Positions 14,900 through 38,205 are shown, counted from the stretch's first letter. The stretch is DNA of 64,000 nucleotides from Minisyncoccota bacterium (GCA_041664925.1 JBAYJV010000003.1:21179-85178), one strand, 5' to 3'. The notes: generated from the letters alone by a model not told the origin. Made by a program: numbers and translations.

Positions 14900-16270
14900 A
14901 TGCAAGAGAAACACGAGAGGAAGCCGCATTTTGAGACAGATGGCATTCATCATGCCACTATCAGAGGACATCGGTTCCATCTGAGATTAAAGGATCCGAT
15001 CAGTGACAACTATCTTTGGATTGATGGTAAAACCTTACTTGTTATTGGTCCAAGAGATGCAAATTTTGTCCGTTATATCATTGAAGCAATGTGGAAGTTT
15101 TTAAATGGCGAAGGTGATCGGATTGAAGAAGCTGCTAATTGGATTGTTGATCAGATGAAAAAGATGTATCCCAAAGTTAATCGTCGTCGAATTCGCAAGG
15201 ATCTTGACAGGATTTTTGACACCTTAATGGCGATTGCCGAAAGCGGATGTCCGGTTGAGGTCCTAGGAGAAGATGATGTTCGCGAAGTGCGATACGATAA
15301 ATGGGTCGCGCCAGCGCGCATGGATCTTGCAGTCACTGGCCGTTGTAATCTGAATTGTGGAAAATGTTATCGAGGCGGTAGCCAGATTATTCAAGAATTA
15401 GATCTTGATGCGTGGCGTAAGGCTTATGGCATTCTTTGGAATGCTGGGGTTCACCAGATTGTTTTTACTGGTGGAGAGCCAACTCTGCGCGACGATATTG
15501 TTAAGCTAGTCAGCGAAGCAGATGAGTTTGTCACAGGGCTTGTAACTAACGGAACGAATCTTGAAGCATTAGCAGAAGAATTATTTGCAGCGAGCCTTGA
15601 TTATGTTCAAGTAACGATTGAGTCTTGGACTTCTGCGATTCATGATGCAATGACTAATACTCCTGGCTCTCATGTCAGGACGGTTGCTGGCATCAAGAAA
15701 GCGCTTGAGGTTGGTCTGAGCGTCTCAACAAACACGACGCTTACCAAACAAAGCGCAGCAGGATTTCTTGAAACTATCAGATTCTTGCATTCGCTTGGCG
15801 TAAAACATGTTGCCTGTAATAGTCTTATTTGCAGCGGGCGTGGAACTGCTTGCAAGATAGAGAATGGTCTTAGTGACCAGGAACTTGCAGGAATTCTTGA
15901 ACAAGCTTGCGAATTAGCTGATGAACTTGGAATGGAATTCCAATGGTATTCGCCGACGTGCTACACTCTTGGCGTAAATCCCATTGATCTGGGATTAGGT
16001 GTTAAGACTTGTTCAGCGGCGTCATATAATATGACGATTGAGCCAAATGGTTCTGTGCTTCCTTGCCAATCCTGGCCGGAGAGTGTCGGAAACATTCTCG
16101 TGGATGATTGGAAGAAGATCTGGGAACATCCGGTTTGCGTTCAGTTGCGCAATCATGCGATGAAAGCGCTTGGATGCGGAGGATGCGCTCACGAAACTAC
16201 TTGTGCGGGTGGGTGTCCGCTCGACAAGACACCGCGCCAAAAGACGACCAGCAAAAAGGAGTGTGCGTAG
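14900..16270 (+). CDS. Radical SAM protein with a C-terminal SPASM/twitch Cys-rich domain (peptide- or protein-modifying maturase type)
   Basis: TGRCNLNCGKCY (CxxxCxxC) and GGEPTLRDD. C-terminal clusters CNSLICSGRGTAC and CGGCAHETTCAGGC. Confidence 0.75.
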   Translation: MQEKHERKPHFETDGIHHATIRGHRFHLRLKDPISDNYLWIDGKTLLVIGPRDANFVRYIIEAMWKFLNGEGDRIEEAANWIVDQMKKMYPKVNRRRIRKDLDRIFDTLMAIAESGCPVEVLGEDDVREVRYDKWVAPARMDLAVTGRCNLNCGKCYRGGSQIIQELDLDAWRKAYGILWNAGVHQIVFTGGEPTLRDDIVKLVSEADEFVTGLVTNGTNLEALAEELFAASLDYVQVTIESWTSAIHDAMTNTPGSHVRTVAGIKKALEVGLSVSTNTTLTKQSAAGFLETIRFLHSLGVKHVACNSLICSGRGTACKIENGLSDQELAGILEQACELADELGMEFQWYSPTCYTLGVNPIDLGLGVKTCSAASYNMTIEPNGSVLPCQSWPESVGNILVDDWKKIWEHPVCVQLRNHAMKALGCGGCAHETTCAGGCPLDKTPRQKTTSKKECA

Positions 16271-16272
16271 CC

Positions 16273-17232
16273 ATGAAAAAGCTCTATCTGTTGGCAACGC
16301 TTGTTTTGCTCTGTGTCTTCGGCGCGTGCGTTTTTGCCGATGACACCGGAACCTATAAGATTATTGATTATAAAGTAACCTTAAATCCACAGATAGACGG
16401 ATCGTTTTTGCTGGGTTGTTACCAGAAATGGGAAGTAACTAGTGGCCATATCCCTTGGATTACCGTAGGACTTCCTAATAGCGGATTTAGTATCAAGAAT
16501 TCAGGACTTAATGTTAAAACCATTAAATCTGATAATTCTAGTGATTGGTCAGGAGTCAGAATTGACCTTGATAATGATTATAAGCCTGGACAAACATTCG
16601 AGGTTTCCTTTGAAGTTAGCGTCAAGCTTCTTGGTCAAACAAAGGAAGGATATCGGATTAGCTATACTCCCGGTTGGTATGATCGGGCAGTAACAGATAG
16701 GCTAACGATCGTTCTGGATTTGACCACGCTTACCAGCGATACGTCGGGCATTAAGACCAATCCACAACCAACATCAACTAATGCTTCTCAGCTTACCTGG
16801 GAAAAGACTGGTTTAACAAAAGGCGAACACTTTGCAATTACTATTGACTTGCCAAAGACAATCTTTCCTGAAGTTGATCAAAAGAATGTTCATAAAGGAT
16901 TGTCAGGCGTAGCATGGTTTTTCATCATTATTGGAATAATCGCCGGTGTTATCATTATAGCTTTCCTTATTGGTGCTATGGATGATGGCGGTTATTCCGG
17001 CGGTGGCGGCATCTTTGTTGGCGGAAGTGGTGGTGGCGGTGGAAGAAGCTCGGGTGGCGGTGGCGGGTTCGGCGGCGGAGGATTCTCCTGCGCTTGTGCC
17101 TGTGCCTGCGCTTGTGCTGGTGGCGGCGGAGCGGGTTGTTCTCGCAAAGCTGACCATACTTGTCCGCTATGCCGGGACTCTCGTCAGAAAAGGAATAGAA
17201 TCAATCTTTTTAAAAGGAAGCGCCATGAATAA
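16273..17232 (+). CDS. DUF2207-like membrane protein: signal peptide, extracellular domain, one TM helix, Gly-rich cytoplasmic tail
   Basis: Architecture and tail GGYSGGGGIFVGGSGGGGGRSSGGGGGFGGGGFSCACACACACAGGGG. The CACACACACA stretch is encoded by an in-frame (TGY GCY)5 repeat. Confidence 0.55.
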   Translation: MKKLYLLATLVLLCVFGACVFADDTGTYKIIDYKVTLNPQIDGSFLLGCYQKWEVTSGHIPWITVGLPNSGFSIKNSGLNVKTIKSDNSSDWSGVRIDLDNDYKPGQTFEVSFEVSVKLLGQTKEGYRISYTPGWYDRAVTDRLTIVLDLTTLTSDTSGIKTNPQPTSTNASQLTWEKTGLTKGEHFAITIDLPKTIFPEVDQKNVHKGLSGVAWFFIIIGIIAGVIIIAFLIGAMDDGGYSGGGGIFVGGSGGGGGRSSGGGGGFGGGGFSCACACACACAGGGGAGCSRKADHTCPLCRDSRQKRNRINLFKRKRHE

Positions 17233-17785
17233 GAAGTACGTGGTATTTCTCTTAATGGCAATCCTATTTCTGACAGCTTGTAATAGTAATCAGGGCGGTC
17301 AGGATGCTGGAAACGTATCGATTCCTGAAGGTTGTCCTCCTTTTACTCATTTAGGACAGTATTGGGTGATTGACAATGCCAATGTTCTCAATCTGAGCAC
17401 TATTGTTTATGCTGATGCGATTTTCCAGAAGCTCAAACAAGATGGTATTGCCGAGATCGTGGTTTTGATTCAGCCAGGCGTTAAAGATAGCGCTTTGCTG
17501 ACATACGCCACGCACTATGGCAGATGGTTAGGGCTTGGAAAAACCGGTCCCAGTTCTCTAGGCGGCAATAATGGTATCGTATACCTGATTGTGCCAGAAC
17601 TAGAGAGTAAGCTGACGATTGAGCCAGGAAGAGGCATGTTTAAGTTTACTATCAGTGATTTTGGCCCGATCGTGGAACGAGTCGCGATGGATTTTCTTAA
17701 CTATGGTGACTATGACGGAGGTGTCAAAACTCTAGCAGACGAAACTGATAGGGTTTTAAGAGAGATCTATAAACCAGGGAGCTAA
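17225..17785 (+). CDS. TPM-domain lipoprotein (TLP18.3/Psb32-like phosphatase fold)
   Basis: Lipobox LTAC. YWVIDNANVL-type TPM signature. Overlaps the DUF2207 stop with ATGA-type coupling. Confidence 0.5.
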   Translation: MNKKYVVFLLMAILFLTACNSNQGGQDAGNVSIPEGCPPFTHLGQYWVIDNANVLNLSTIVYADAIFQKLKQDGIAEIVVLIQPGVKDSALLTYATHYGRWLGLGKTGPSSLGGNNGIVYLIVPELESKLTIEPGRGMFKFTISDFGPIVERVAMDFLNYGDYDGGVKTLADETDRVLREIYKPGS

Positions 17786-24551: not shown

Positions 24552-24582
24552 AAATATTTGGAAGTCTCACTTCCAAATATTT
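24552..24582. repeat. Palindrome AAATATTTGGAAGTCTCACTTCCAAATATTT. Second copy at about 28004-28034. Related GAAGTCGGACTTC-core palindromes at about 21949-21975 and 29651-29667
   Basis: Seen directly. Lies upstream of paralogous genes 1 and 3 of the MxREGEQF family. Confidence 0.75.
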
Positions 24583-24642
24583 GTTTAATGAACCTTAAAA
24601 ATATGTTTGAGGTCTCACCTCTAACATATTTCTCATATTGCT

Positions 24643-27183
24643 ATGTTTAGAGAAGGAGAACAATTTTTACATAAAAGAGACAGTCAACTGCACACTTCTG
24701 GTCCGGTGGAGCATGAAAAATATCGCAAAGAAATGGCAGGCGAGGAAACTTCACAAAAACCAGTCGACAAGATCGCTGATTGGCTGAAAGTTATTGAAAA
24801 AACTCATCTGGAACATCGGGATGATCCAAGAGTTTTAGAAAGAATCAAGGAGTATTACCACGATCAGTTTGTCATTAAACCAGAAGATGTTCCTGAGAGT
24901 TATTATGAAAATCAAAAAAGAATAGCTCGAGAACAAGGTCATGGCGATATTGAAATTCCTGAACGGATAAGAGAACAAGGAAGAGAGGTAATTATTAATG
25001 ATCAAAAATCTACTCTGGATAATTGGGTAGATTATTTTATTTCTCATGATTCTGAAAGTTTTCCAATGTGGGCAAAGTATTGGGCATTTAATGGGATGCT
25101 CAAACTCTCAACTTTTGATAAAGAAAAACATGTTTTTGGAAAACGAGATAAAAATACAGTTGCCCCTTTTCCTGATCTTAATCGCGAAGCCCTAGCCTAT
25201 GTGATTGATGCTATTATTAAGAAAGCCAAGAATGAGAACATACCAATAGCGCAAGATAATCCAGAACTTCAGAAGCTTCTTGAAGGAGCCAATTTTGGCA
25301 AGCTATATATCTATGCGATTGAAAAAGTAACTCCCACAGAAACAAATGAACTTTTAAAAACAGAAGGAGAATGGGTTAGATATCCTCAAGAATCTGACCA
25401 TATGCCATTAGTCGAATCTCTCCAGGGCTATGGTACGGGTTGGTGTACAGCTGGAGAAAACACAGCAAAGGCCCAATTAGAAAGCGGTGATTTTTATGTA
25501 TATTATTCCCACGACAAAGAAGGCAACCCAACTATTCCCAGAGCAGCGATCAGGATGGAAGGAGAAAATATTGCCGAAGTCAGAGGCATTGGTCCACAAC
25601 AAAATCTTGATCCATATATTAGCGATGTTGTTGAGAAAAAATTAGTAGAATTTCCTGACGGTCAAGCTTACAAGAAAAAAACAGCTGACATGAAACGGCT
25701 GACAGAAATTGAAAAAAGAAATCTCAAAGGAGAAGAATTAACAAAAGAAGACCTAAGGTTTTTATATCAATTGGACACAAAGATTGAAGGATTTGGCTAT
25801 GGAAAAGATCCAAGGATTGAAGAGATTTTGAAAAAAAGAGATATTAAATCCGATCTTTCTTTAGCAACAGGATATTCAAAAGAGCAAATTAGCACAACAG
25901 GACAGGAGGCTTTTCAAAACAATATTGAAATTCATTACGGCGATATTTTTATTAATGATTTTGATCTTGAAGAATTGAGTTATTCTTTTGATAAACTGAA
26001 ATTTCCAAAAATAGTAACTGGAAGCATTTCATTGTCTAATCTAAACCATTTTGATCGAGTGGAGTTTCCAGAGGAAATCAAGGGTAATCTTGGGCTTGGT
26101 GATATTGTGTTTGTGGAAGGGATAAAACTGCCTAAAATCGTAGGCGGGAATCTTGATCTTGGTAGTATTGAGTCTGCCGTTGGTCTCGAATTACCAGAAG
26201 TAATAGATGGAAACTTATATCTTGGAGGTTTAGAATCTCCAGAAGGATTGAAATTGCCAAAAAAAATAGGCGGCACTCTTTATCTTAGCGGTCTTAAGTC
26301 TGCAGAAGGATTGGAATTGCCAGAAGTAGTAGGTGGTAGTTTGATACTTTATGGTCTTGAGTCTGCCAAAGGCCTAAAATTACCCAAAACAATTGGTGGA
26401 GAATTAGATCTTAATGGTCTAGAGTCTCAAGAAGGACTAGAATTACCAGAAACAGTAAATGGCAATCTTGGACTTAATAGTCTTAAGTCTGTCAAAGGTC
26501 TTAAATTACCAAAAATAGTTAAAGGATATCTTCATCTTAGCAGTCTTGAGTCTACTAATGGTTTAGAATTACCAGAAATACTAGGCGGACTTTCTTTGGG
26601 CGGAATTGATAATGTGAAAGATTTGAAATTACCAAGAACAATGAGCGAAAACCTTAATCTTGTTGGCCTTACATCTGCAGAAGGATTAGAATTTCCAGAA
26701 ACAGTAGGTGGTACTATTTATCTTAATTCTCTTGAGTCTGCTAAGGGGTTAAAATTACCGAAAACAGTAGGCGGAGGGATTCGCCTCAATGCTCTTAAGT
26801 CTGCTGAAGGATTAGAATTACCAGAAATAGTAAACGGTGACCTTGATCTTAGAGGCCTTATTTTTCCTCAGGGATTAAAATTGCCAAGGATAATAAAAGG
26901 AGATCTTTTACTCAATGGTCTTAAGTCTGCAGAAGGATTAGAATTTCCAGAAACAGTAAATGGCGAACTTGATCTTAATGGCCTTGTGTATCCTCAGGGA
27001 TTAAAATTGCCAAGGACGATAAAAGGAAATCTTTCGCTTAATGGTCTTAAATCTGTTGAAGGATTAGAATTTCCAGAAACAGTTGGTTTGACAATTTATC
27101 TCAATGGTCTTCCACGAACTATCAGGTTTGAAGAGATAAGAAGATTAAGAAAACAATACCCTGAATTAGCTTTTCATTATTAA
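24643..27183 (+). CDS. large protein with about 25 tandem 21-residue leucine-rich-repeat-like units at its C-terminus
   Basis: Repeats LP(E/K)xVxGxLxLxGL(E/K)SxEGL(E/K) alternate between LELPE and LKLPK types. The N-terminal MFREGEQF is shared with the next two genes. Confidence 0.6.
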   Translation: MFREGEQFLHKRDSQLHTSGPVEHEKYRKEMAGEETSQKPVDKIADWLKVIEKTHLEHRDDPRVLERIKEYYHDQFVIKPEDVPESYYENQKRIAREQGHGDIEIPERIREQGREVIINDQKSTLDNWVDYFISHDSESFPMWAKYWAFNGMLKLSTFDKEKHVFGKRDKNTVAPFPDLNREALAYVIDAIIKKAKNENIPIAQDNPELQKLLEGANFGKLYIYAIEKVTPTETNELLKTEGEWVRYPQESDHMPLVESLQGYGTGWCTAGENTAKAQLESGDFYVYYSHDKEGNPTIPRAAIRMEGENIAEVRGIGPQQNLDPYISDVVEKKLVEFPDGQAYKKKTADMKRLTEIEKRNLKGEELTKEDLRFLYQLDTKIEGFGYGKDPRIEEILKKRDIKSDLSLATGYSKEQISTTGQEAFQNNIEIHYGDIFINDFDLEELSYSFDKLKFPKIVTGSISLSNLNHFDRVEFPEEIKGNLGLGDIVFVEGIKLPKIVGGNLDLGSIESAVGLELPEVIDGNLYLGGLESPEGLKLPKKIGGTLYLSGLKSAEGLELPEVVGGSLILYGLESAKGLKLPKTIGGELDLNGLESQEGLELPETVNGNLGLNSLKSVKGLKLPKIVKGYLHLSSLESTNGLELPEILGGLSLGGIDNVKDLKLPRTMSENLNLVGLTSAEGLEFPETVGGTIYLNSLESAKGLKLPKTVGGGIRLNALKSAEGLELPEIVNGDLDLRGLIFPQGLKLPRIIKGDLLLNGLKSAEGLEFPETVNGELDLNGLVYPQGLKLPRTIKGNLSLNGLKSVEGLEFPETVGLTIYLNGLPRTIRFEEIRRLRKQYPELAFHY

Positions 27184-27204
27184 ATACATAAAGGCAATAT
27201 ATCT

Positions 27205-27978
27205 ATGCTTAGAGAAGGAGAACAATTTGATCAAACAGAAACGGGCGAGTTTGTTGAACAAAAAGTTGAGGATATAGAACCTGACGCTTTTTCTTTGAGT
27301 CCTGAATCGCGACAAACATTAGAAGATTTAAAATTAAAACTACAAGATTTTCGAGATCGTTTTGTTTCGTCTGATACTCAAAAAATTCCGTTTACCGAAC
27401 CGGGCGGCGAACAAGATATTGCAAGAAAAATGACAGCGCTTCAAAAAGAAAAAATTCCACAAATATTTAAGGAAACGGATTTTGAAAGCTCTCATCTAGC
27501 TATTCATGAAACCCAAAAAGAGAAAAATTCCTGCCAATTAGCTTCTGTGAGTAATATTCTTGGAGCACTTGGCATAGAGGTCTCAGAAAAAGAGATTGCC
27601 GGAGAGATTGGCAAGAGCGGAGAATTTGCGGATATATGGCCAGACCAATTAGTTAAGTATTTAAGAGACAAAGGACTAGATGTAACTAGAATAAACGATA
27701 CCCTAGAAGCGATTGATGTGCTTATAAGGGGCGGGAAAATTGTTTTATTTCTTTTGCCTCCGAAATATCCAGTTGCACACGCTGTCGCCATTTCTGGAGT
27801 AAAAATTAATCATGGGAAAATTGAGTTTTATGTTAATGATCCCCAATACAAAAATTACGCGGAAACTCTTTCTTTGGATGACCTTGTCGATATTATAATT
27901 CCTTATTCTTTTAATAGAATTACTCTCCCTTACGCTGTATTAAAAGGGAGGCATTACCAAAATAAATCTGAAAAATAG
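27205..27978 (+). CDS. protein with the shared N-terminal MLREGEQFDQTETGEFVEQKVEDI and a C39/papain-like cysteine-peptidase-like C-terminal domain (tentative)
   Basis: Putative catalytic Cys in NSCQLASVSNILG and His in HAVAISG. The spacing resembles C39-type peptidases. Confidence 0.4.
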   Translation: MLREGEQFDQTETGEFVEQKVEDIEPDAFSLSPESRQTLEDLKLKLQDFRDRFVSSDTQKIPFTEPGGEQDIARKMTALQKEKIPQIFKETDFESSHLAIHETQKEKNSCQLASVSNILGALGIEVSEKEIAGEIGKSGEFADIWPDQLVKYLRDKGLDVTRINDTLEAIDVLIRGGKIVLFLLPPKYPVAHAVAISGVKINHGKIEFYVNDPQYKNYAETLSLDDLVDIIIPYSFNRITLPYAVLKGRHYQNKSEK

Positions 27979-28037
27979 ACTTAAGCTGATTGATATATTT
28001 TGGAAGTCTCACTTCCAAATATTTGTTTAACATATCC

Positions 28038-29189
28038 ATGCTTATAGAAGGAGAACAATTTAATCAGACAGAAACGGGCGAAATTGTTGAACAAAAAGTT
28101 GAAGATATAAGAGCTGAAGAACATTGTTTTGGAGAAGATGAGGGCGAACTTGTTTTAAATTATTTGAAAGGATACATTGAGAGACACAATACGCCTCCAT
28201 CAGAAAACGATGTCTATGCTTTTCTTTCCGGAAAACCCCTTTCTGGCGAACAAATGGGAAAGGTTTATGAAGAATGGCAGCAACAACCTACTACCACAAA
28301 ATGGGCGGAAGATTTGAAACGATTTTATGACGAAAGAGAAGAAGACGGATTATCAAAAATGACAGGATGGATTCATTTTGATACGGCTTGGACAAAAAGA
28401 GGCGAGCAGGAAAAAAGGGAAGAAACTAAATATCGTTTTTATTTCAATCCGAAAGATGAATATGTCGGTACGGTATTTCAGAATTTAATTACGCTTTTAG
28501 AAGGCGACCCAAATTTGGGATTTGGAATTAAAACACATTCTGTTTTTACGGGCGAGCTTCCGGAAGGAGAAAAAAGATTAGTGCCCGAAGAGGCTTTTAG
28601 GGCAAAGGACAGAATCGTTCTTTATGTTGAAGAAAAATCAGCTAATCAAGTTTTGGGATTATTGCGAGATTATGTAGAAAGTCACAAAGATTGGTTTAAC
28701 GAGGATGCGCTTCCTTTTTCTGCGAAAATTAAAGATAAGACTGGTGTGGAAAAATTACCTGGCATCTCAATGGCTGGAGAGCTTGATCGTGAATCCCAAG
28801 GCCGCAACCCGACCTCTTTTACGGGAATTCAGGCAAGGATTATTCAAAGAGGATTAAAAGAAATGGCGGACTTGATCGAAAATCCGGATGGACATGATCC
28901 TATTAAAGCTGATTATCTAGGAACATTCAGTCAAGATTCAGAAATCCAACAATGGGCTTTGCGAATTCAAGAGGAATATAAAAAAAGAAAAAGCGAACTT
29001 CAAGGAAGGTGGATTGATAAGGAGCGTTTGATTCACGAATGCGTTGTCGACGATCCGCAAAGCGCCAAGATTTTTCCCAAAGTTTTTCGCCATTTTTATG
29101 AAAGATTTGCTACGCTTTATGGCATTGATTTAAAAAATATCGCTTTCTATGATGAAGAAAGGCAAAAATTAATGAAGGACGTGCAATAA
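28038..29189 (+). CDS. hypothetical protein, third member of the shared N-terminus family (MLIEGEQFNQTETGEIVEQKVEDI)
   Basis: The N-terminal 24 aa and the underlying DNA are almost identical to those of 27205. The C-terminal domain is unrelated. Confidence 0.45.
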   Translation: MLIEGEQFNQTETGEIVEQKVEDIRAEEHCFGEDEGELVLNYLKGYIERHNTPPSENDVYAFLSGKPLSGEQMGKVYEEWQQQPTTTKWAEDLKRFYDEREEDGLSKMTGWIHFDTAWTKRGEQEKREETKYRFYFNPKDEYVGTVFQNLITLLEGDPNLGFGIKTHSVFTGELPEGEKRLVPEEAFRAKDRIVLYVEEKSANQVLGLLRDYVESHKDWFNEDALPFSAKIKDKTGVEKLPGISMAGELDRESQGRNPTSFTGIQARIIQRGLKEMADLIENPDGHDPIKADYLGTFSQDSEIQQWALRIQEEYKKRKSELQGRWIDKERLIHECVVDDPQSAKIFPKVFRHFYERFATLYGIDLKNIAFYDEERQKLMKDVQ

Positions 29190-29295
29190 ACTCTAAACTT
29201 TAAATAAATTGACATATGTGGGAGGCTGAGCCTCCCACATATGTCTTATTGACAATTGGTTATCTGTGTATTAATGTTGTAGTAAGGAGGGCGAT

Positions 29296-29571
29296 ATGCG
29301 TATTAAAAAGGCTAGCAAGGGATGGCGAGGCAATGTTACTCTTGATACTAGAATAAAACACGATCCTCAAGAAGACGATCCCAAATTGGGACCAATCATT
29401 AAACAAGCTTACGAAGAAGCATGTATTACAGTGTGCGGAGAGAAAAAGCCTCGAAAACTAGAGCTTGGTCAGAATCACGCTATTTGGGGAAAACAAAAAG
29501 AGATCCTGAGAGCACAAGGCATTAGTTGGAAAACTCCAGCGGAAATGACTCCAGGAACAATGATAGATTAA
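29296..29571 (+). CDS. hypothetical protein
   Basis: Promoter TTGACA ... TATTAAT. RBS AGGAGGG. Terminator hairpin at 29588-29615. Confidence 0.35.
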   Translation: MRIKKASKGWRGNVTLDTRIKHDPQEDDPKLGPIIKQAYEEACITVCGEKKPRKLELGQNHAIWGKQKEILRAQGISWKTPAEMTPGTMID

Positions 29572-29715
29572 GAATTGTTCTTTGCCCGACACAGAAGAAA
29601 GTGTCGGGTTTTTTGATAGATATTTACTTTTTATTGCAAAACACAATCTTACGAAGTCGGACTTCGTAAAATTGTTATATCTCATTGGCATTCACAAGAA
29701 AATCTAATAAAAAGC

Positions 29716-29744
29716 TTGCATTTTGGAGTGGAATGTGGTATAAT
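29716..29744 (+). promoter_or_regulatory. Cassette promoter P1: TTGCAT, 17-nt spacer, TGgTATAAT (extended -10). The same module occurs at 31089, 31648 (TTGATT), 32428 (TTGATT), 38505, 38788, 43387, 44181 and 53655
   Basis: Near-identical sequence (aaaacYcTTGCATTTTA...TGTGGTATAAT) occurs at least 9 times. The ORF track's apparent start codons at 29716, 31089 and 38505 are the TTG of the -35 box. Confidence 0.7.
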
Positions 29745-29811
29745 GAATAGTGAAAGAGAGATTAGGAGTTTCTCAGTTCAAAAACACTCAAACAAGAAGG
29801 AGAGGAAGAAG

Positions 29812-30129
29812 ATGGATCACGCGAAAGCCAGCGAAGCGATTCGTTCTTTGGTCCAAGGAAAGCCGGCGCGCTTGCAGCTCATTTTCCGAAAGGGAAAAGA
29901 CTCGATCACGGGCCTGCGACGCCTGATGGTTCGGAAGGGCGAGTGGTTCACCTACGACGACATGACCGAGATGATCATTCTCGCGGTCGTCCAGTCGAAC
30001 GATTGGGACAATGACGAGAACCGAAAGGTCGTCATTGACATCCCGGTCGTCTGCTGGGAGTTCGTCAACTGGTTCTTGCAGAGCAGCGGGATCGTGAAAG
30101 ACCTCGAGAGCATCGCGGTGGTGCACTAG
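29812..30129 (+). CDS. cassette ORF, about 105 aa (MDHAKASEAIRSL...), GC-rich, paralog of 31248
   Basis: AAGGAGAGG RBS. About 85 percent identical to 31248..31562. Terminator at 30159-30189. Confidence 0.55.
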   Translation: MDHAKASEAIRSLVQGKPARLQLIFRKGKDSITGLRRLMVRKGEWFTYDDMTEMIILAVVQSNDWDNDENRKVVIDIPVVCWEFVNWFLQSSGIVKDLESIAVVH

Positions 30130-30158
30130 GCTTGAGTCTTCACGAGTACAAGTACGGT

Positions 30159-30189
30159 GGGCGGTCAGAGGATCGCCCATCTTTTTTTT
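30159..30189 (+). terminator. Cassette terminator type 1: GGGCGGTC-AGAG-GATCGCCCATC hairpin followed by a T8 run. Repeated at about 30892, 31589 and 32377
   Basis: Four nearly identical copies lie downstream of four different cassette ORFs. Confidence 0.75.
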
Positions 30190-30369
30190 ATTATGCCTAG
30201 GTCTTGGTGTTGAGGTTAGACCTCAATAGCCACCCTAATAACCAAGTTTTGTTTATTTTGTTATTTTTAGTAAGGAGAAAAGACAAAAAAACACCAAAAA
30301 GCTTGACTTTTTAATTAAATATAGTACAATTTGTGACAGAAGTAGATAAAACCAAAGAGGAGGAAAAAC

Positions 30370-30870
30370 ATGGAAACGCGCAATGTAAGGGTACTGATTT
30401 TTGAGAAGCAAGGATGCGTGAGTGGAGTATTCGAGATCATTCCGTTTGTCTACGATTCTAGCAATACAAGTGATGAAGACCTCAAGGCTTTTGTAAGGAG
30501 ACAGGTAATCGAGACAATTCGTTCACGCGGCAGTGATTTAAGTGAAAAAGGAGAATTGGATAAAGCTCGATTCTTCCGTCCTGCTGCAGTTGAGAAGCAG
30601 AAGATTTACAGACAACTTCCATATAAAGTTGGGGATTCTTATGTTATCATTGATGCGTTTGTTTCTCGCGGTTTCAATTTCAAGCTTGATTGTCCCTGTG
30701 TTTTTGTCGAAGTTTGTCAGTCGCGAATCAATGATAATGATTTTTGGGTGAATATTTATGATGTTGACGATGCACAAGTCCCAATCTGTGTGATTCTCGT
30801 AGAAGAATATGTTTTTATTGGACCAATCTCCGATGTTGGTGACAAAGAGAAAGTTTGCGCGGGAGCGTAA
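30370..30870 (+). CDS. cassette ORF, 166 aa, hypothetical
   Basis: Own promoter TTGACT-16-TACAAT at about 30303. AGAGGAGG RBS. Type-1 terminator at 30892. Confidence 0.5.
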   Translation: METRNVRVLIFEKQGCVSGVFEIIPFVYDSSNTSDEDLKAFVRRQVIETIRSRGSDLSEKGELDKARFFRPAAVEKQKIYRQLPYKVGDSYVIIDAFVSRGFNFKLDCPCVFVEVCQSRINDNDFWVNIYDVDDAQVPICVILVEEYVFIGPISDVGDKEKVCAGA

Positions 30871-31247
30871 ATCAATCGTTAGTGAAGTTTTGATGGGCGG
30901 TCAGAGGATCGCTCATCTTTTTTTATTACATTAATTTTTAACATGACAATGTGGGAGGCTCAGCCTCCCACATATTTCTTATTTAGATGTAATCCTTCGA
31001 CTTTGCTCAGGATATATCCTTCAATAGATTCAGGACAAGAAATTTTCTATATTTCATCATAATTCAACAAGAAAATCTAATAAAAAGCTTGCATTTTGGA
31101 GTGGAATGTGGTATAATGGTTGTTAAGAAGAGAGTTGTGTATGAGTTAGTCCTTCGACTGCGTCGCGTCAAACGCGACTCCGCTCAGGATGTAAGAGCTT
31201 CTAGATTCGATAGAAGCTCATCAAGAATCTCTAACAGGAGGAAGAAG

Positions 31248-31562
31248 ATGGATCACGCGAAAGCCAGCGAAGTGCTTCGTTCTTTAGCCCAAGGAAAGCC
31301 GGCGCGTTTGCAGCTCGTTTTTCGAAAAGGAAGGGACTCGATCACGGGCCTGCGGCGCCTGATGATGCGGAAGGGCAAGTGGTTCACCTACGACTACATA
31401 ACCGAGATAATCATTCTCGCGGTTCATGAGTCGAACGATTGGGACAATGACGAGAACCGAAATGTCGTCATCAACATCCCAGTCGTCTGCGGGGAGTTCA
31501 TCGAATGGTTCTTGCAGAGCGAGATCGTGAGGGACCTCGAGAGCATCGCAGTGGTGCACTAG
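31248..31562 (+). CDS. cassette ORF, about 104 aa, paralog of 29812 (MDHAKASEVLRSL...)
   Basis: Same promoter module at 31089. The leader carries an inserted GTAAGAG-type element. Type-1 terminator. Confidence 0.55.
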   Translation: MDHAKASEVLRSLAQGKPARLQLVFRKGRDSITGLRRLMMRKGKWFTYDYITEIIILAVHESNDWDNDENRNVVINIPVVCGEFIEWFLQSEIVRDLESIAVVH

Positions 31563-31711
31563 GCTCGAGTCTTTACGAGTACAAGTACGGTGGGCGGTCA
31601 GAGGATCGCTCATCTTTTTTTAAAAATATTAAAATTACCTAAAACTCTTGATTTTTGTAGCGATGTGTGGTATAATGAGTAGTAGGAATTTGGGACTAAG
31701 AAGGAGGAAAG

Positions 31712-32356
31712 ATGACAGATCGAAGAGTTGTGCAAACGGGAAGGTACCATGGAGAGTTGTTGGATGCTTTGACTTTCGTTGAGCAACTCAACGCAGGGGG
31801 GTGGGTTGCCTCGGCGGGTATACCATGGAAGCTTCAGGAGCTTCCGGTAACCAAAGCGTCGCTTAGCGGAGAGACATTGAAGATTGAAGTTGGAGGGCAC
31901 AGTTTTGAGCTTCCGAGCGATCGCATTCTCCTTGTCGATCCTTGGACTGTCAAGGTTCTTCATACAGTCATGCGGAGACAACAGCGCAAGATGATCGACG
32001 GTGGTGGTTGGCACGAAGTGCCTGGTATAGGGGTTGCTTTTAGTGTGCGGAATCCTGCACTTGAAGAGAGTATCCGCAGGGTTCGAGATGAGAAGGCTCG
32101 ACGCGAAGAAGAAGAGCGACAGCGCCGCGAAGCTGCAGAGCACGAAGCAAAGCGCCAGGAGTTTGTCGCGCGACTCACGCAAGACTTTGTTGGCAAGAAG
32201 CTGGCAAGAATCGATGTTGTCGGCGAAGATCTCCATCTCGAGTTCGATGATGGTTCTAAGTTGTCGATCGAGCTTGCCGGTGGAGATACATATGACGCGT
32301 GGATCGATGTGAACGGAATCTCACTTCATTGTTTCAAAGCCGACACTTATCGTTGA
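31712..32356 (+). CDS. cassette ORF, 214 aa, hypothetical, GC-rich with an Arg/Glu-rich helix
   Basis: Promoter TTGATT-17-TGTGGTATAAT at 31648. AAGGAGG RBS. Type-1 terminator. Confidence 0.5.
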   Translation: MTDRRVVQTGRYHGELLDALTFVEQLNAGGWVASAGIPWKLQELPVTKASLSGETLKIEVGGHSFELPSDRILLVDPWTVKVLHTVMRRQQRKMIDGGGWHEVPGIGVAFSVRNPALEESIRRVRDEKARREEEERQRREAAEHEAKRQEFVARLTQDFVGKKLARIDVVGEDLHLEFDDGSKLSIELAGGDTYDAWIDVNGISLHCFKADTYR

Positions 32357-32456
32357 GTTTTCGCAAATCAAAGTGGTGGGCGGTCAGAGGATCGCCCATC
32401 TTTTTTATGGCAAAAACACCATTTTGCTTGATTTTTGGAGTGAGGTGTGGTATAAT

Positions 32457-32594
32457 AGGGAGTGAGAAGAGAGTTGGGATTTATGCAATACCTCTTGGCA
32501 ATGATGTGGTTGGAATGTAAAAATTCTTACTAGATCGCTGCCAAGATGGTAGCTTCCGGTGAAGTACCGGAGAATCCCGAGATGGGAGGAAACC
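32457..32594 (+). ncRNA. Long conserved 5' leader of three cassettes (GGTTGGAA, ATTCTTACTA, three hairpins, GGGAGGAAAC RBS), candidate cis-regulatory RNA. Paralogous leaders at about 44210-44337 and 54752-54861
   Basis: Blocks are conserved across three loci. Paired positions show compensatory changes (GCTGTtgaaacgACAGC versus GCTGCCaagatGGTAGC, and CCGGTggagTACCGG versus CCGGTgaagTACCGG). Confidence 0.4.
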
Positions 32595-32996
32595 GTGACG
32601 CAAAGAAAGAGTGGACAAGAGATTCTTCTCTCTAAGTCAGTCTGTTTTGCCTTGGAAATGGTACGCATCTGCCTGTGGCAAGTGCCGACGGGAGTTTATC
32701 TTCTCAATGGACCATGGATGCAGATGAATATGGCGTCCAGCCTTATGGGGAACGAAAACCATGGATGTCGGCTTGTAACATTTTCAATTCTTGTCCATCC
32801 AAACACTCGCATCAGTGCTACCTGCAATGTTCGTTGTGTGAGTGGTGAATGGAGGACGGGTACGGTCGAGATCTGGCTGCTTGATGCCGAAGGCAAAAGG
32901 CGGGATGATAAGCGCTGGAAGTTCGATTGTCGATTCAACGAGAACGGCGATGGCGGGTGGAATATCCGTTGGTTGGATCCAATCAAGAGTCAGTAG
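32595..32996 (+). CDS. cassette ORF, about 133 aa with a GTG start, distant paralog of 44338 and 54862 (the C-terminus ...WNIRWLDPIKSQ matches ...WNPKWELVPLPKKSQ)
   Basis: The GTG directly follows GGGAGGAAACC, exactly analogous to GGGAGGAAAC-ATG at 44338. Type-2 terminator at 33008. Confidence 0.45.
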   Translation: MTQRKSGQEILLSKSVCFALEMVRICLWQVPTGVYLLNGPWMQMNMASSLMGNENHGCRLVTFSILVHPNTRISATCNVRCVSGEWRTGTVEIWLLDAEGKRRDDKRWKFDCRFNENGDGGWNIRWLDPIKSQ

Positions 32997-33007
32997 GAGT
33001 AAGAAGT

Positions 33008-33047
33008 GCGGCTCGGCGACAGAGGTTGCCGGGCCGTTTTTTTTGTC
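33008..33047 (+). terminator. Cassette terminator type 2: GCGGCTCGGCGAC-AGAG-GTTGCCGGGCCG hairpin followed by T8. Copies at about 38702 and 39178
   Basis: Three near-identical copies. Confidence 0.7.
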
Positions 33048-33303
33048 TAAAAAGGCAAAAAAAGTTTTTTATTTTAGGAGAAAATTAGATATAATGGCAT
33101 ATATAATGTAATTTCAAATTTTAAAATCCAAATTACAAACACGGGATTCTTCCCCTGTACCATACGGTACAGGGTCAGAATGACCCTCCTTCGCCCATCC
33201 TTCGTTAAAACTACGGATTGGCAAGCAAGACTACGGAAGGGCGAGGCAATAATTTCTGGATTTCTGCTTTCGCAGGAATGACACAATATATATAAATAAA
33301 ATT

Positions 33304-33810
33304 ATGGAAGAAGAAAATACTTCGACAAGCTCAGTACAAGTTGCTTCGACAAGCTCAGCACAAGTTGAAAATACAGAAGATATGGGGGATATAAGAGAGA
33401 AGAGGGATACGGGAGTAGCTCTTGGACAAGACTCAGGGCAAGTGGTTGAGGAAATACAAGTTGAATCGCAAGCAGATTCATCGCAACCATCTTCGCCTGA
33501 AATTACTGAGCCGGTTTTGCCGACGGTTCAGGTTGAGGAGACGCCAGTTGTTGCGCCGACGCAAAGCGCGAATTTTGATTTGCAAGGATTGGCAGAAAAA
33601 ATGAAGGCGGCGATTTTTGGAAGACGCGAGAAAAAATTGGCGAAAATTTTAGATTATTTGAATGCGAATGGGAAAATTAAAAATGAGGAGATTAGAAAAT
33701 TAGTCAGAGTTTCCAGCGCAACCGCTACGAGATATATGAATATTTTAGAAGAAAGAAAACAAGTTGAACAAATTAGAACAAAAAGACATGCTTTTTATAA
33801 GAAAATTTGA
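33304..33810 (+). CDS. hypothetical protein with a C-terminal winged-helix-like DNA-binding region
   Basis: Acidic, low-complexity N-terminus. C-terminus LAKILDYLNANGKIKNEEIRKLVRVSSATATRYMNILEE is HTH-like. Confidence 0.4.
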   Translation: MEEENTSTSSVQVASTSSAQVENTEDMGDIREKRDTGVALGQDSGQVVEEIQVESQADSSQPSSPEITEPVLPTVQVEETPVVAPTQSANFDLQGLAEKMKAAIFGRREKKLAKILDYLNANGKIKNEEIRKLVRVSSATATRYMNILEERKQVEQIRTKRHAFYKKI

Positions 33811-34126
33811 GATAGCTCTATGGCTCACATTGCGGGTTTGAATGGAGATTTCTATGGCTCAAATGGAAGAAATGAGCCATAGGGTGAGCCATTAAAAATA
33901 TAATAGAATATAGAAGTTAGAAGATAGAGGATAGAAGATAGAATAATTACAAACATCAAACATTAAATACGGGATGACATTTTTGTCCCCGGCGAGCCGG
34001 GGCCTCATAAAACCAATGATTCTCTCGCCTTTGGCGGATCATCAGGTTTTATGGGTTGTCCTCTTGTTATCTGGGGGCGTTTACTGGTAAAATAGGAACA
34101 GGTTTGCGTTTTGTTATTTACTTGAT

Positions 34127-34624
34127 TTGTGTTTTATTAACATGGGATTTTTAGATAAGATATTTGCAATGTTTAAAAAAGAATCGCCGATCGAAGGCAG
34201 TATTGATGGCGGTCCGATTGTGACGGGTGGCAGCGCTGATGGAGCGGAAATTGTTGGCGATCAAGGCGCAGCGAAAACCGTTGATTTTCCGGAGCAACCG
34301 GTGCAGCCTGGGAAACCGGAACAATCTGAGCAGTCTGAGCAACCTGAGCAGCCGAAAGAGGATGTTGTGGATATGGCGGGAGGGGCGGTTGGTGACGAGG
34401 CAGGGGTTATTGCGGAAAAACCTGTTGAACCTGAAACGGTTGAAAAAGAAGTAGCTAGTGTTGAGGTAGAACCGTTGGAAAAAGTAGAAGAAGTTAAGCA
34501 AGCTCCGGTATCAAATCCAGCGACTTCGATCGAAGAGTTGGAAGCGAAGATTGGGACTGGCGCAGAACCAGAGATTATGGCTCAAGAGGGCGGGCCAGAG
34601 GAAATGGATAAACCGGAAGAATAA
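34127..34624 (+). CDS. acidic, Pro/Glu-rich low-complexity protein
   Basis: Repeats of PEQ, SEQ and PEQ. Predicted disordered. Confidence 0.35.
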   Translation: MCFINMGFLDKIFAMFKKESPIEGSIDGGPIVTGGSADGAEIVGDQGAAKTVDFPEQPVQPGKPEQSEQSEQPEQPKEDVVDMAGGAVGDEAGVIAEKPVEPETVEKEVASVEVEPLEKVEEVKQAPVSNPATSIEELEAKIGTGAEPEIMAQEGGPEEMDKPEE

Positions 34625-34747
34625 TTTGTTTTGTTATATTAAATTAAAAAAATGATTAAATTAAAAAAAGCCAATCATGGCGCACGACCGGCATTAAGAA
34701 AAGCCCTTAAAAAGCACAAGAGAAAATAATATTAATTAAAATATATT

Positions 34748-35209
34748 ATGCCTGAAGATAAATTAAAAACACAGGAGGGAGTTGATAAATCCAAAGATTT
34801 GGAAAGAAATGTTTTAGTAGAACCAATCGGCGAAGGAGTTGTTGTTGAAAAAGAAATTAGCCCAGAAGAAGCAAGAGAAAAAGAGAGAATAACAGAAAAA
34901 AGAAAAGAAGCGATTAGAAAAACTGTTGAGGAAAAAGAAGTTGGCGAGGAACAGAGAGAAACAATTGATGAGATAAAAAAAGAAGCGCGAAAATCGGGAA
35001 CTTGGGAGGTTTTTAATGATGACCAAATCGTAGAAAGGCTAATTTTAGCGATAAAAGATGACGATAATCGCCATAATTTAGAAAATGCTTTGCAAGCAGC
35101 AAGAGAAATGGGAGAATCTGTGTTCGATAATTTAATTGGCGAACTTGCGGGCAATGACGAAGTTTGGGAAATCTTAAAAGAAAAAGGATACATAGATTAT
35201 CCTGAATAA
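34748..35209 (+). CDS. acidic hypothetical protein
   Basis: 153-aa ORF with a Glu/Lys-rich helix. Confidence 0.35.
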   Translation: MPEDKLKTQEGVDKSKDLERNVLVEPIGEGVVVEKEISPEEAREKERITEKRKEAIRKTVEEKEVGEEQRETIDEIKKEARKSGTWEVFNDDQIVERLILAIKDDDNRHNLENALQAAREMGESVFDNLIGELAGNDEVWEILKEKGYIDYPE

Positions 35210-35224
35210 TAATTAGGTATTTTT

Positions 35225-37648
35225 ATGGAGAAATTCTTTTTTGGAGCTGTTTTTGTGATTGTTATTGGCGCTTTGTTTTTTGCTGGGCGGATTATTTTCA
35301 AAAAAAGAAAGAAGGGACACCTGGGAAATCTCTTGGGAATGTCTCTTTTTTTAATTAGGCTACCGAAAAACGAAAGAAAACTTAAAGAGGGCGAGACGAG
35401 CAGGGATTTTCGCGAAAAAATTGGTGCGATTGAACAATTTTATGCGAGTTTTTCAGGTTTGACTCGCAAGGGATGGAAAAAGTTTATTTATGGGTTACCC
35501 AGAATAACAGTTGAGATAGCTAATACAATTCAACAAGAAGAAGTCGGTTTTTATATTTCTGTGCCAAAGGGACTCGAGGCTCAAGCCAAGAAACATCTTC
35601 AGGGAATTTATCCGGAAGCTGAAATCGATCGCTGCGAAAAAGATTATAATCCATTTGTTCCTCAAGGAGAATCGGCTGGAGGGTATTTTGTTTTGAGAAA
35701 AGATATTTTATTGCCCTTGAATACTTATACAAATCTCAAAATTGATCCATTAGCGCAAATCACCAATACGCTTAGCAATATTTTTCCAGAAGAAGGAGCG
35801 GCGGTTCAACTGGTGATCAGGCCAGCTAATAATAAATGGAATGAAAAAGCCAAAGAAGCGGTCAAACAACTAGGCGAAGGCAAGAAATTTTCGGATATAA
35901 AAAAAGGCATGAATATACCTGCTGGACTTGGAAGCGAATTTAAAAAACTTGTAACCATGGAGAATAAAGATGAAGAAGAAAAGGTTCAAAGAGTTGATGA
36001 GACTACTCTGGAATTGGTAAAGAATAAATCCCAAAAAACATTATTCGAAGCAAATATTAGAATTGTAGCATCATCACAAGATAAGATGTCTGTCAAGAGA
36101 ATTCTCGATGCTTTGGTCGCAGCTTTTGGTCAATATGATTTGAATCAGGGAAATTCTTTGGAATTTATCAATCTTAAGAAAAAACCATTGAAGCAGATGT
36201 TTTATAATTTTAGTCTGCGATTTTTTGATACGAAAAAAATAGTTATTTTGAATGCGGAAGAATTGGCAAGCATTTTTCATTTATCGATTGAAAATCTTAG
36301 AACGCCAAAGATAAAAACCCTAAAAACCGCGAAGGCGCCTATACCTGTCGAACTTCCCGATGCTGGACCAGTTATTTTGGGTGAGGCAACATTTAGAGAA
36401 GAAACGAAAAAAGTTTATTTTGCGACCGATAACGATCGCCGCAGACATTTTTATATTATTGGACAAACCGGTACTGGTAAAACATCTCTCTTAAAAGAAA
36501 TGATCCGTCAAGATATTGAGGCTGGTCGGGGCGTTGGTGTGGTTGATCCTCACGGAGATTTGATTGAAGATACGCTATCGAATATTCCGCTTCATCGCCG
36601 AGACGATGTCGTTCTATTTGAACCATTTAATACGGAAAATCCAGTGGGACTAAATATGCTTGAATATGACACAGAGGAACAAAAAGATTTTGCGGTTCAG
36701 GAAATGGTTGCGATTTTCCAAAAACTTTTCCCGCCAGAAATGATCGGGCCGATGTTCGAACATTATATGAGAAATGCGATGTTGGCGCTAATGGCTGACA
36801 AAGATGATCCGGGAACGCTAGTCGAAATTCCAAGAATCTTTACCGATGATTTATACATGGAAGAACGACTAGCTAAAGTTAAAGATTTGGTAGTGAGGCA
36901 ATTCTGGGAAAAAGAATGGAAGAAAACAACAGGACAAACCAGATCTGATATGCTTGGCTATGTTGTCTCCAAAGTTGGCCGATTTGTCGAAAATGCGATG
37001 ATGCGCAACATTATTGGTCAAGCGCATTCGGGTGTCAACTTGTCCGACATCATGGACAAAGGAAAAATCTTTCTGGCGAATCTTTCCAAAGGTCAAACTG
37101 GCGAGGTTAATAGTTCTTTGCTTGGACTTATTCTTGTCAGTAAATGTCAAATGGCAGCCATGAGGCGAGGCAATATTCCGGAAGATCAAAGACGAGATTT
37201 TTACTTGTATGCCGATGAGTTTCAAAACTTTACCACCGATTCAATTCCGACGATTTTATCAGAGGCTCGCAAATATAGACTCAATCTAATTTTATCTCAT
37301 CAATTTATTGCCCAACTTCAAGACAATATCAAAGACGCGGTCTTCGGGAATGTCGGCTCAATTTTATCGTTCAGAGTTGGCGTTGAGGACGGCGAGAGAT
37401 TGGAAAAGCAATTTGAGCCGGATTTTACAAGACAAGACATCATCAATCTGCCAAACTACGAGGCGATTATAAAACTGATGATTAATGGCCAAGTCAGCTC
37501 GTCTTTCCGCATGAAAACCACTGCGCCCAAGATTGGCGACAGAGCTCAAATCCAAGCAATTAAAGATATTTCAAAATTAAAATATGGAAGAAAAAAGGAA
37601 GAAGTTGAAAAAGATATTGCCAGGAGGGCAAAGTTAGGAAGTTTATAA
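35225..37648 (+). CDS. Membrane-anchored P-loop ATPase of the TraG/TraD/VirD4-like coupling-protein or AAA_10-like type
   Basis: N-terminal TM helix. Walker A IIGQTGTGKTSLL. Walker-B-like LYADEFQNF. 807 aa. Confidence 0.5.
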   Translation: MEKFFFGAVFVIVIGALFFAGRIIFKKRKKGHLGNLLGMSLFLIRLPKNERKLKEGETSRDFREKIGAIEQFYASFSGLTRKGWKKFIYGLPRITVEIANTIQQEEVGFYISVPKGLEAQAKKHLQGIYPEAEIDRCEKDYNPFVPQGESAGGYFVLRKDILLPLNTYTNLKIDPLAQITNTLSNIFPEEGAAVQLVIRPANNKWNEKAKEAVKQLGEGKKFSDIKKGMNIPAGLGSEFKKLVTMENKDEEEKVQRVDETTLELVKNKSQKTLFEANIRIVASSQDKMSVKRILDALVAAFGQYDLNQGNSLEFINLKKKPLKQMFYNFSLRFFDTKKIVILNAEELASIFHLSIENLRTPKIKTLKTAKAPIPVELPDAGPVILGEATFREETKKVYFATDNDRRRHFYIIGQTGTGKTSLLKEMIRQDIEAGRGVGVVDPHGDLIEDTLSNIPLHRRDDVVLFEPFNTENPVGLNMLEYDTEEQKDFAVQEMVAIFQKLFPPEMIGPMFEHYMRNAMLALMADKDDPGTLVEIPRIFTDDLYMEERLAKVKDLVVRQFWEKEWKKTTGQTRSDMLGYVVSKVGRFVENAMMRNIIGQAHSGVNLSDIMDKGKIFLANLSKGQTGEVNSSLLGLILVSKCQMAAMRRGNIPEDQRRDFYLYADEFQNFTTDSIPTILSEARKYRLNLILSHQFIAQLQDNIKDAVFGNVGSILSFRVGVEDGERLEKQFEPDFTRQDIINLPNYEAIIKLMINGQVSSSFRMKTTAPKIGDRAQIQAIKDISKLKYGRKKEEVEKDIARRAKLGSL

Positions 37649-37667
37649 TAAATTTTAAAATAAAATC

Positions 37668-38177: not shown

Positions 38178-38205
38178 TCAGCCCTGGGTTGACTAGTTTT
38201 GTGGT

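Follow-up and report, generated by a model that had tools for sequence, protein, structure and literature searches.

A shared gene start in a strain-variable three-gene block of a Candidatus Paceibacterota genome, probably derived from local recombination

Introduction

In polymorphic toxin families such as Rhs, CDI, LXG and MafB, adjacent genes have an identical start followed by unrelated downstream sequence, and the same arrangement is seen in three adjacent genes, here named g1, g2 and g3, in a 64-kb stretch of DNA (the window) from a metagenome genome of Candidatus Paceibacterota, in the candidate phyla radiation (CPR). A preliminary description, made from the sequence alone, had read them as one family with a shared N-terminal address and swapped C-terminal modules. 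The locus differs from polymorphic toxins in that its constant part is only 8-24 residues long, contains no trafficking domain and is limited to two or three linked genes, and in that immunity genes, orphan C-terminal cassettes and a cognate secretion system are absent here.

The three proteins and the hairpins that surround their genes each have described counterparts. The core of the canonical leucine-rich repeat (LRR) is LxxLxLxx(N/C)xL with an Asn/Cys ladder. Tandem Leu-rich units of 20-22 residues are found in the LPX-type LRRs (IpaH, SspH1, SlrP, YopM), in SDS22-like proteins and in the FNIP/IP22 repeats of giant viruses and Dictyostelium; g1 has such units, with a Leu-Pro motif, and they are predicted to form a solenoid of short stacked β-strands without helices. 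It differs from the canonical LRR in having neither the LxxLxLxxN/C core nor the Asn/Cys ladder and in matching no Pfam LRR model. The g2 protein resembles the C39 and C39-like peptidases (PF03412, PF13529) in exceeding the Pfam cut-off and in having a Gln-x5-Cys motif with a downstream His. Unlike the peptidase of C39 ATP-binding cassette (ABC) exporters, it stands alone and is not the N-terminal domain of an exporter; unlike bacteriocin-processing C39 systems, it has neither an ABC exporter nor a double-glycine substrate gene nearby, and the shared peptide does not finish with a GG motif.

Among the HopA1-like proteins are the phospho-Ser/Thr lyases (LanY) that act in class V lanthipeptide pathways and whose conserved catalytic Arg, Lys and Tyr are R187, K219 and Y236 in CaoY (PMC9486802). 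The g3 protein matches the model of this family (PF17914; CaoY, LxmY, TvaD) over residues 127-275, 0.5 bit under the cut-off, while its locus differs in having no precursor peptide in the neighbourhood and no APH-type kinase (LanK) or type III system among the window open reading frames (ORFs) of at least 120 aa. Lastly, the perfect hairpins at gene ends, with arms of 14-18 bp, in several families and terminator-like, resemble intrinsic terminators and the repetitive extragenic palindromic (REP) elements that go with REP-associated tyrosine transposases (RAYTs), and Y1_Tnp genes of the window lie between two hairpins of one type. The hairpin type found at our genes, hp1, differs from REP elements in occurring only twice in the window, away from any Y1 gene.

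Results

Extent and origin of the shared gene start

The window contains three copies of the 24-nt sequence ATGYTTAKAGAAGGAGAACAATTT and no more; they lie at 24643, 27205 and 28038, each at the start of a same-strand ORF, where shuffled sequences give an expectation of 0. This bears out the preliminary description, which had reported near-identical DNA at three gene starts. The length of the similarity is not the same in the three genes. g2 and g3 have a common 89-nt patch, from -9 to +80, with 88% identity, and the similarity stops at both borders. g1 has only the first 8 codons (MFREGEQF) in common with them, after which 34-39 of 72 nt differ. A 24-residue N-terminus had been claimed for all three genes; it is present in g2 and g3 and reduced to 8 residues in g1.

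The g1 homologues from unrelated genomes natively start with M-x(2-4)-GEQFLHxK(D/N)..LHTS..VEHE, as in MENLGEQFLHKRNPSLH, MKNLGEQFLHKRDDKLH and MSLEGEQFLHQKD. GEQFL is exact in 21 of the 63 homologue N-termini examined, and one homologue (L075) reads EGEQF. The DNA of two unrelated homologues, L011 (GGAGAACAATTTTTACAT) and L012 (GGTGAACAATTTTTACAT), carries the same codons, GG(A/T)GAACAATTT-TTACAT. In the AlphaFold2 model, residues 4-31 of g1 are confidently predicted helices of the N-domain. Since GEQF is native and structured in the g1 family, the shared start appears to reflect copying of the g1 5' end rather than a common tag; GEQF is thus an ancestral structural part of g1, and it is a foreign element only in g2 and g3. 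On the simplest reading, the shared start is a patch that recombination or gene conversion transferred from g1 to g2 and g3.

The sister strains point in the same direction. The g2 and g3 patches of L006 differ from each other at 3 of 72 nt, compared with 4-6 of 72 between orthologous patches of different strains, and residue 15 is Asp (GAT) in both L006 patches but Glu (GAR) in the window and in L004. Paralogues that are closer to each other than to their orthologues, together with the shared Asp15, represent a gene-conversion signature, and the patch differences point to concerted evolution, albeit in small numbers. Between strains, the patches are 92-94% identical, compared with 82-83.5% for the gene bodies.

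If the start was acquired in this way, the ancestor of g2 and g3 would have received the first eight codons and ~9 upstream bases as a copy from g1, and the longer 89-nt patch (24 codons) common to g2 and g3 would have been kept similar through gene conversion. All three genes would then have the same unstructured translation-initiation region that lacks a Shine-Dalgarno (SD) sequence, and g2 and g3 would have gained the same short acidic N-terminal extension (the net charge of the first 30 residues is -8 in g2 and -7 in g3). The extension may be tolerated or mildly useful, and the block may be expressed coherently. With moderate confidence, we suggest that g1, g2 and g3 (Table 1) form a strain-variable accessory block of three unrelated cytoplasmic-type proteins, and that their common start comes from local recombination and is not a general targeting tag.

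Table 1 Features of the three-gene block and its flanks (window coordinates).
Feature	Position	Strand	Description
g1	24643..27183	+	846 aa; N-domain at residues 1-~430, repeats at 452-829; member of a large uncharacterised family
Shared 24-nt start of g1	24643..24666	+	encodes MFREGEQF; GGAGAACAATTT (GEQF) is native to the g1 family
g1 repeat array	25996..27129	+	18 units, each of 63 nt except one of 60 nt; 126-nt super-repeat
g2	27205..27978	+	257 aa; stand-alone C39-like cysteine peptidase
89-nt 5' patch of g2	27196..27284	+	-9 to +80; 88% identity to the g3 patch
g3	28038..29189	+	383 aa; shared 24-residue N-terminus, then a body with a borderline HopA1/LanY-like match
89-nt 5' patch of g3	28029..28117	+	counterpart of the g2 patch
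Hairpin hp1	24552..24582	n/a	AAATATTTGGAAGT-CTC-ACTTCCAAATATTT; terminator-like or REP-like; directly after the aspS stop codon
Hairpin hp2	24599..24631	n/a	AAATATGTTTGAGGT-CTC-ACCTCTAACATATTT; upstream of g1
Second hp1 copy with 3' flank	27999..28030	n/a	weaker hairpin, between g2 and g3
Hairpin after g3	29211..29245	n/a	GGGAGGCT type, GACATATGTGGGAGGCT-G-AGCCTCCCACATATGTC; closes the three-gene block

Search for other carriers of the shared peptide

A general secretion or address tag should have given many matches in sequence collections. We searched 1.84 billion cluster representatives with HMMER, using a profile of the first 40 residues of g2 and the g3 orthologues. The profile matched g3's own cluster (E 8e-21) and, in many short stretches, five long repetitive low-complexity proteins; no other carrier of the shared peptide was found among these protein representatives, in a search for which 24 residues are close to the limit of detection. 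At the DNA level, the exact start pattern was present in 0 of 185,579 GTDB species genomes and in a single sister-strain contig of the JGI collection. The profile search and the JGI and GTDB pattern scans speak against a widespread address tag.

The surroundings of the genes gave no sign of a delivery system. The spacers between g1 and g2 (21 nt) and between g2 and g3 (59 nt) contain no small ORFs, no immunity-like ORFs are present, and no signal peptide or transmembrane segment is present in g1, g2 or g3. When window ORFs of at least 120 aa were scanned against Pfam, neither an ABC transporter or exporter among the neighbouring genes nor machinery of type III, VI or VII was found, and g1-g3 have no dedicated secretion system beside them. 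With no other carriers and only two or three linked genes, of which just two carry the full 24 residues, the polymorphic-effector or secretion-tag reading of the preliminary description is not supported. The identity is in essence confined to local tandem genes, the very situation that had been named as speaking against that reading; its companion, a match of the repeats to a described LRR subtype, was not found.

Several observations weigh against local recombination as the whole explanation of the shared start. The inference of gene conversion is built on very few substitutions, and the copying from g1 accounts for the first eight codons but not for codons 9-24, which in g2 and g3 continue GEQF with the 16 residues [DN]QTETGE[FI]VEQKVEDI. 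The 24 codons are in frame and intact in 5 of 5 g2/g3 copies from three strains, and the amino acids of the patch change at about the rate of the rest of the protein (83-88% identity), through synonymous and conservative changes. In-frame, intact codons suggest that some constraint acts on the peptide at the protein level, and none would be required for a pure by-product. In addition, the profile, whose power for 24 residues is limited, did not recover g2's own cluster, presumably because the 50%-identity representative of that cluster lacks the N-terminus or differs in it, and other carriers could be hidden likewise. Within this genome, which comprises a 327-kb contig and other contigs, the direct scan for the peptide covered the window.

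In an alternative reading, the acidic 24-residue N-terminus of g2 and g3 would be a functional targeting, docking or leader peptide, for instance a signal for non-Sec export or for delivery to a host, or a pro-peptide that g2 cleaves off, with the GEQF start of g1 perhaps belonging to the same signal; g2 and g3 would then be two enzymatic effectors of an episymbiont that are handled together. Across the five in-frame copies of the three strains, the changes are synonymous (GGC/GGT, GTT/GTC, GAA/GAG, CAA/CAG) and the replacements only conservative. In residues 14-24 (GEIVEQKVEDI), the hydrophobic positions follow the pattern i, i+1, i+5, i+8, as expected for a short amphipathic helix, and AlphaFold2 places a helix at 13-26 with very low confidence. 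The domains are effector-like (LRR-like solenoid, cysteine peptidase, HopA1-like body), a TrwB/VirD4-like coupling ATPase is encoded 6 kb downstream, and C39 peptidases as a family cleave leader peptides. The same peptide, however, was found in no other protein in the searches described above, the shared segment has no double-glycine motif at its end, and no ABC transporter or recognisable secretion machinery is adjacent. The type IV signals known so far are C-terminal. Moreover, the shared residues lie within a folded domain in the g1 model, and the first 8 codons are borrowed from g1. We consider a leader function rather unlikely. A broader version seems very unlikely to us. In it, the N-terminus would be a leader specific to this lineage, with its first eight residues taken from the extreme N-terminus that is universally conserved in the g1 family, and it would direct a C39-like peptidase and a HopA1-like enzyme to Sec-independent export or to delivery into the host cell of a CPR episymbiont. 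The GEQF N-terminus of the whole family (CPR, Bdellovibrionales, small-genome gut Bacilli) would then belong to an export signal, so far unrecognised, that host-dependent or predatory bacteria use.

Hairpins and strain variation

A perfect direct repeat of 32 nt is common to the two hp1 copies (24557-24588 and 27999-28030), of which the second palindrome is slightly shorter (27999-28024). The preliminary description had placed the same 31-bp palindrome before two of the genes; the repeat itself is perfect, while the second palindrome is shorter and the element is not special to these genes. hp1 lies at the 3' end of the preceding gene with a terminator-like score, and the region of hp1 and hp2 has a folding energy of -28.8 kcal/mol (z = -7.3). 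Several families of perfect hairpins are dispersed over the window; hp1 is one of these types, and its two copies here are local.

Three variants of the locus were found: aspS-hp1-g3 (L004, L005), aspS-hairpin-g2-g3 (L006-L009) and the complete g1-g2-g3 arrangement of the window. The g2 orthologue is accordingly present in L006-L009 and absent from L004 and L005. In the sister strain L004, hp1 is kept after aspS; L006 has another hairpin type there, GGAGG-like and related to the hairpin that follows g3 in the window. BLAST breakpoints showed that L004 corresponds to the window lacking precisely the segment from one hp1 copy to the other; in L004, the hp1+hp2 pair is found after g3 instead. The breakpoints at the hp1 copies and the differing hairpins therefore place the variable junctions at the hairpins and not at the shared start. 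The gene content of the locus probably changes by recombination at the repeated REP-like or terminator-like hairpins that bracket the genes.

The window also contains three IS200-like Y1 transposase genes (PF01797), all on the + strand, at 2108-2884, 40428-41132 and 55442-56125, with hairpins around them at 2009-2041/2905-2935, 40308-40336/41165-41193 and 55373-55409/56085-56119, respectively. Of the seven copies of the GGGAGGCT type (ATATGTGGGAGGCT-N-AGCCTCCCACATAT) in the window, two flank the Y1 gene at 55442-56125, and the TCGAAGTC type (AATTTATCGAAGTC) flanks the one at 40428-41132. From their arrangement, the Y1 genes and perfect hairpins look like a set of several REPtrons (RAYT plus REP) within this CPR genome.

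The genes might accordingly be cassettes of a hairpin-bounded mobile unit, in which Y1 (RAYT-like) transposases mobilise or delete g1-g2 and the repeated start is a junction scar. The perfect 32-nt repeat with hp1 flanks g1 and g2, precisely the segment that L004 lacks; hairpin types differ between strains at orthologous intergenic sites; and each of the three Y1_Tnp genes lies between perfect hairpins. RecA-type recombination between repeats of 32-42 nt, however, explains the indel equally well, the hp1 type flanks no Y1 gene in the window, and hp1 is missing from the junction of the L006 variant, which has g2 but lacks g1. A distance of 50-60 nt separates the shared start from the hairpins and places it outside the junction. 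We regard such a mobile unit as quite improbable and retain local recombination as the source of the shared start. An integron-like cassette array was dropped as a candidate, in that perfect palindromes occur genome-wide, both beside Y1 transposases and beside housekeeping genes, and the scanned ORFs included no integrase. A phage or defence origin of the block was likewise dropped, with no matches in PHROGs or PADLOC and nothing from tblastn of the g1 N-domain against phage genomes.

AAGGAG and translation initiation

The preliminary description had proposed that AAGGAG, in codons 4-6 of the shared start (+10 to +15), doubles as an internal regulatory element. The six bases encode E-G-E and are not conserved in g1 homologues; L012 reads CCAGGTGAA, with GGTGAA at that place. 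The RNA of the shared start region is less structured than shuffled controls, and an Rfam scan gave only tRNAs and no RNA element at the start. On reading the sequence, we found no in-frame ATG, GTG or TTG at SD spacing after AAGGAG. A role as ribosome-binding site of a downstream start was rejected as well: the one TTG close by, which lies in g2, is in another frame and meets a stop after 17 codons. These results give no sign of a regulatory role.

A wider form of it would make the whole 24 nt a nucleotide-level regulatory element, such as a ribosome stand-by or pause site or the target of a small RNA or protein. Codons 4-8 are without synonymous variation in 6 of 6 copies, and island genes of the same genome use a strong AAGGAGG SD, so the ribosome probably recognises SD sequences. 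Yet GAA, GGA, CAA and TTT are the expected codons at 36% GC and the copies are recent, AAGGAG is absent from g1 homologues elsewhere, as in L012, and neither an in-frame start at SD spacing nor an RNA structure nor an Rfam match accompanies it. We take this form to be extremely unlikely.

The housekeeping genes here have AT-rich upstream regions without an SD, and g1-g3 follow this SD-less pattern. More generally, two gene populations can be distinguished in the window: low-GC housekeeping genes without an SD (aspS at 23123, and genes at 22020 and 21180) and higher-GC genes (0.42-0.45) with a strong AAGGAGG 9-13 nt upstream, most of them without Pfam matches. Examples of the latter are the genes at 14900, 17799, 19068(-), 30370, 31712, 43476, 47731, 54128 and 57551. 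The higher-GC genes are probably foreign or mobile DNA with a different style of translation initiation.

g1 and its family

The AlphaFold2 model of g1 (mean predicted local distance difference test score, pLDDT, 88.2) consists of a mixed α/β N-domain (1-~430) followed by a helix-free solenoid, in which two to four very short strands per 21 residues are stacked. W267-C268 in GTGWCTA, R300 and G315 are among the invariant residues. The solenoid that the preliminary description had expected in the repeat region is thus predicted with high confidence, and the strict alternation it had noted is confirmed: units of L[KR] type (LKLPK) and E type (LELPE) follow each other without exception, and TRF gives a 126-nt double unit. 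The number of repeats was overestimated at about 25; we count 18 units, at residues 452-829, each of 21 residues except one of 20.

The unit reads LxLPxx[VI]xGxLxLxxLxSAEG and looks like two LxL half-units of ~10 and ~11 residues. Since it has no LxxLxLxxN core, and no conserved Asn or Cys at the ladder position, the g1 repeats are by their sequence LRR-like and not canonical LRRs. Against Pfam, g1 matched no family at E <= 0.1, and 61 homologues gave inconsistent repeat noise, with LRR_14 in 6 of the 61. Foldseek against the PDB gave weak matches to SDS22 (E 0.028), SspH1 and a Leptospira LRR protein, all at E >= 0.028, and no match for the N-domain. Among viral models (BFVD), g1 matched FNIP-repeat and LRR proteins (E 1e-5 to 1e-4, prob 1.0). 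The best PDB sequence for the family profile was SlrP (E 0.11), and neither single-sequence nor profile searches found significant PDB sequence relatives of g1, g2 or g3. A PcfJ-like N-domain was considered and left as a lead, the BFVD matches being weak (E 0.04-1.5) and the Pfam PcfJ model matching 0 of 61 homologues. The solenoid had also been called novel; it has no canonical LRR motif and no Pfam cover, and at the same time it is typical of its large family.

That family comprises 2,908 proteins at E <= 1e-3 in a word-indexed search, of which the best 120 all have E < 1e-200, and a genome scan found it in at least 573 GTDB species. Among the matches listed, it is concentrated in Patescibacteria classes, Bdellovibrionales and metagenome-assembled genomes of small-genome gut Bacilli, Erysipelotrichaceae and "Tenericutes". 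The repeat type is family-wide and the repeat number variable (proteins of 480-1139 aa), while the K/E alternation is specific to the g1 of the window. No g2- or g3-like neighbours of g1 homologues were found in 80 other genomes or loci (0 of 80). A functional link of g1 to g2 and g3 was dropped on this ground and on that of varied contexts; the homologues sit in unrelated surroundings, by archease and rtcB in L011 and beside parB in L012.

Some further observations were made on individual homologues. The family genomes (L014-L093) often have two copies each. Archease and rtcB are genes that normally work together, and in L011 (3796-8039) the closest homologue of g1 (62% identity) lies between them, as if inserted. 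One homologue, P0038, has a classical signal peptide added before the conserved N-terminus. In L012 (5904-6103), the annotated start of P0010 is truncated, and its conserved N-terminus (MKNPGEQFLHQKD...) is on a separate 45-aa ORF that overlaps the gene start, a sign that this genome has either a frameshift or a faulty assembly at this place.

g2 and g3

The g2 protein was correctly described as having a C39/papain-like Cys-His domain. It matches Peptidase_C39_2 (PF13529) over residues 103-213 with 34.4 bits against a curated cut-off of 24 (E 4e-8). Within this stretch lie Q104, C110 (the sole Cys, in NSCQ) and H192, which were assigned by position and not by structural alignment. An N-terminal extension of ~100 residues, opening with the shared 24 residues, precedes the peptidase.

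The third module had been given as one of unknown function. In g3, residues 127-275 match HopA1 (PF17914) with E ~1e-4 and 22.2 bits against a cut-off of 22.7, and all three g3 orthologues match at ~1e-4; g3 is thus a possible HopA1/LanY-like protein, judged by this borderline similarity. Only three close proteins are known, the identity among orthologues being 83-88%. The AlphaFold2 model, built from only these 3 sequences, is unusable (pLDDT 44), and the g3 profile gave no match in the PDB.

Genomic surroundings

Proteins identical to those of this region are recorded from a 327-kb metagenome contig (JGI 3300037810, also in NCBI and ENA). The three-gene block lies directly 3' of a NIF3-like gene and aspS. 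On its 3' side, at 29296-29571 (+), is a conserved gene for a 91-aa basic protein (MRIKKASKGWRG...) without a family match, whose upstream region (29246-29295) has a TTGACA -35-like box and a strong SD, TAAGGAGG. This gene follows g3 in all three strain variants (L004 5464-5621; L006 7356-7628).

Between the 91-aa gene and miaA, at ~29700-38200, lies a higher-GC island, at the edge of which the sister-strain contigs end. It contains duplicated small paralogues (29716-30129 and 31089-31562), both beginning with MHFGVECGIM, a winged-helix (helix-turn-helix) protein (33304-33810) and an 807-aa TrwB/VirD4/HerA-like ATPase (35225-37648). The island is possibly an integrated conjugative or viral element. 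Beyond it are miaA, glyA, thyX, thrS and dnaE. Elsewhere in the window, ComEC is encoded at 2965-4470, and a radical SAM/SPASM-domain protein at 14900-16270 (+), where the GC content is higher. The gene of the latter has a strong SD, and overlapping ORFs without annotation come after it (16108-17785). This stretch may be a peptide-maturase cassette.

Discussion

The shared gene start is a real finding, local and mostly ordinary. If it arose by recombination as we suggest, adjacent accessory genes in a reduced CPR genome would gain a working start by copying the 5' end of a neighbour, and repeated hairpins would drive presence/absence variation between strains, which is useful to know and unsurprising.

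The more valuable by-product is the g1 family, with its confidently predicted N-domain of ~430 residues and its non-canonical 21-residue β-solenoid. The solenoid of g1 is the hallmark of a large, widespread and unannotated family and not a one-off. The lineages in which this family is concentrated, namely episymbiotic CPR, predatory Bdellovibrionales and small-genome gut Bacilli, suggest a function in cell-cell interaction.

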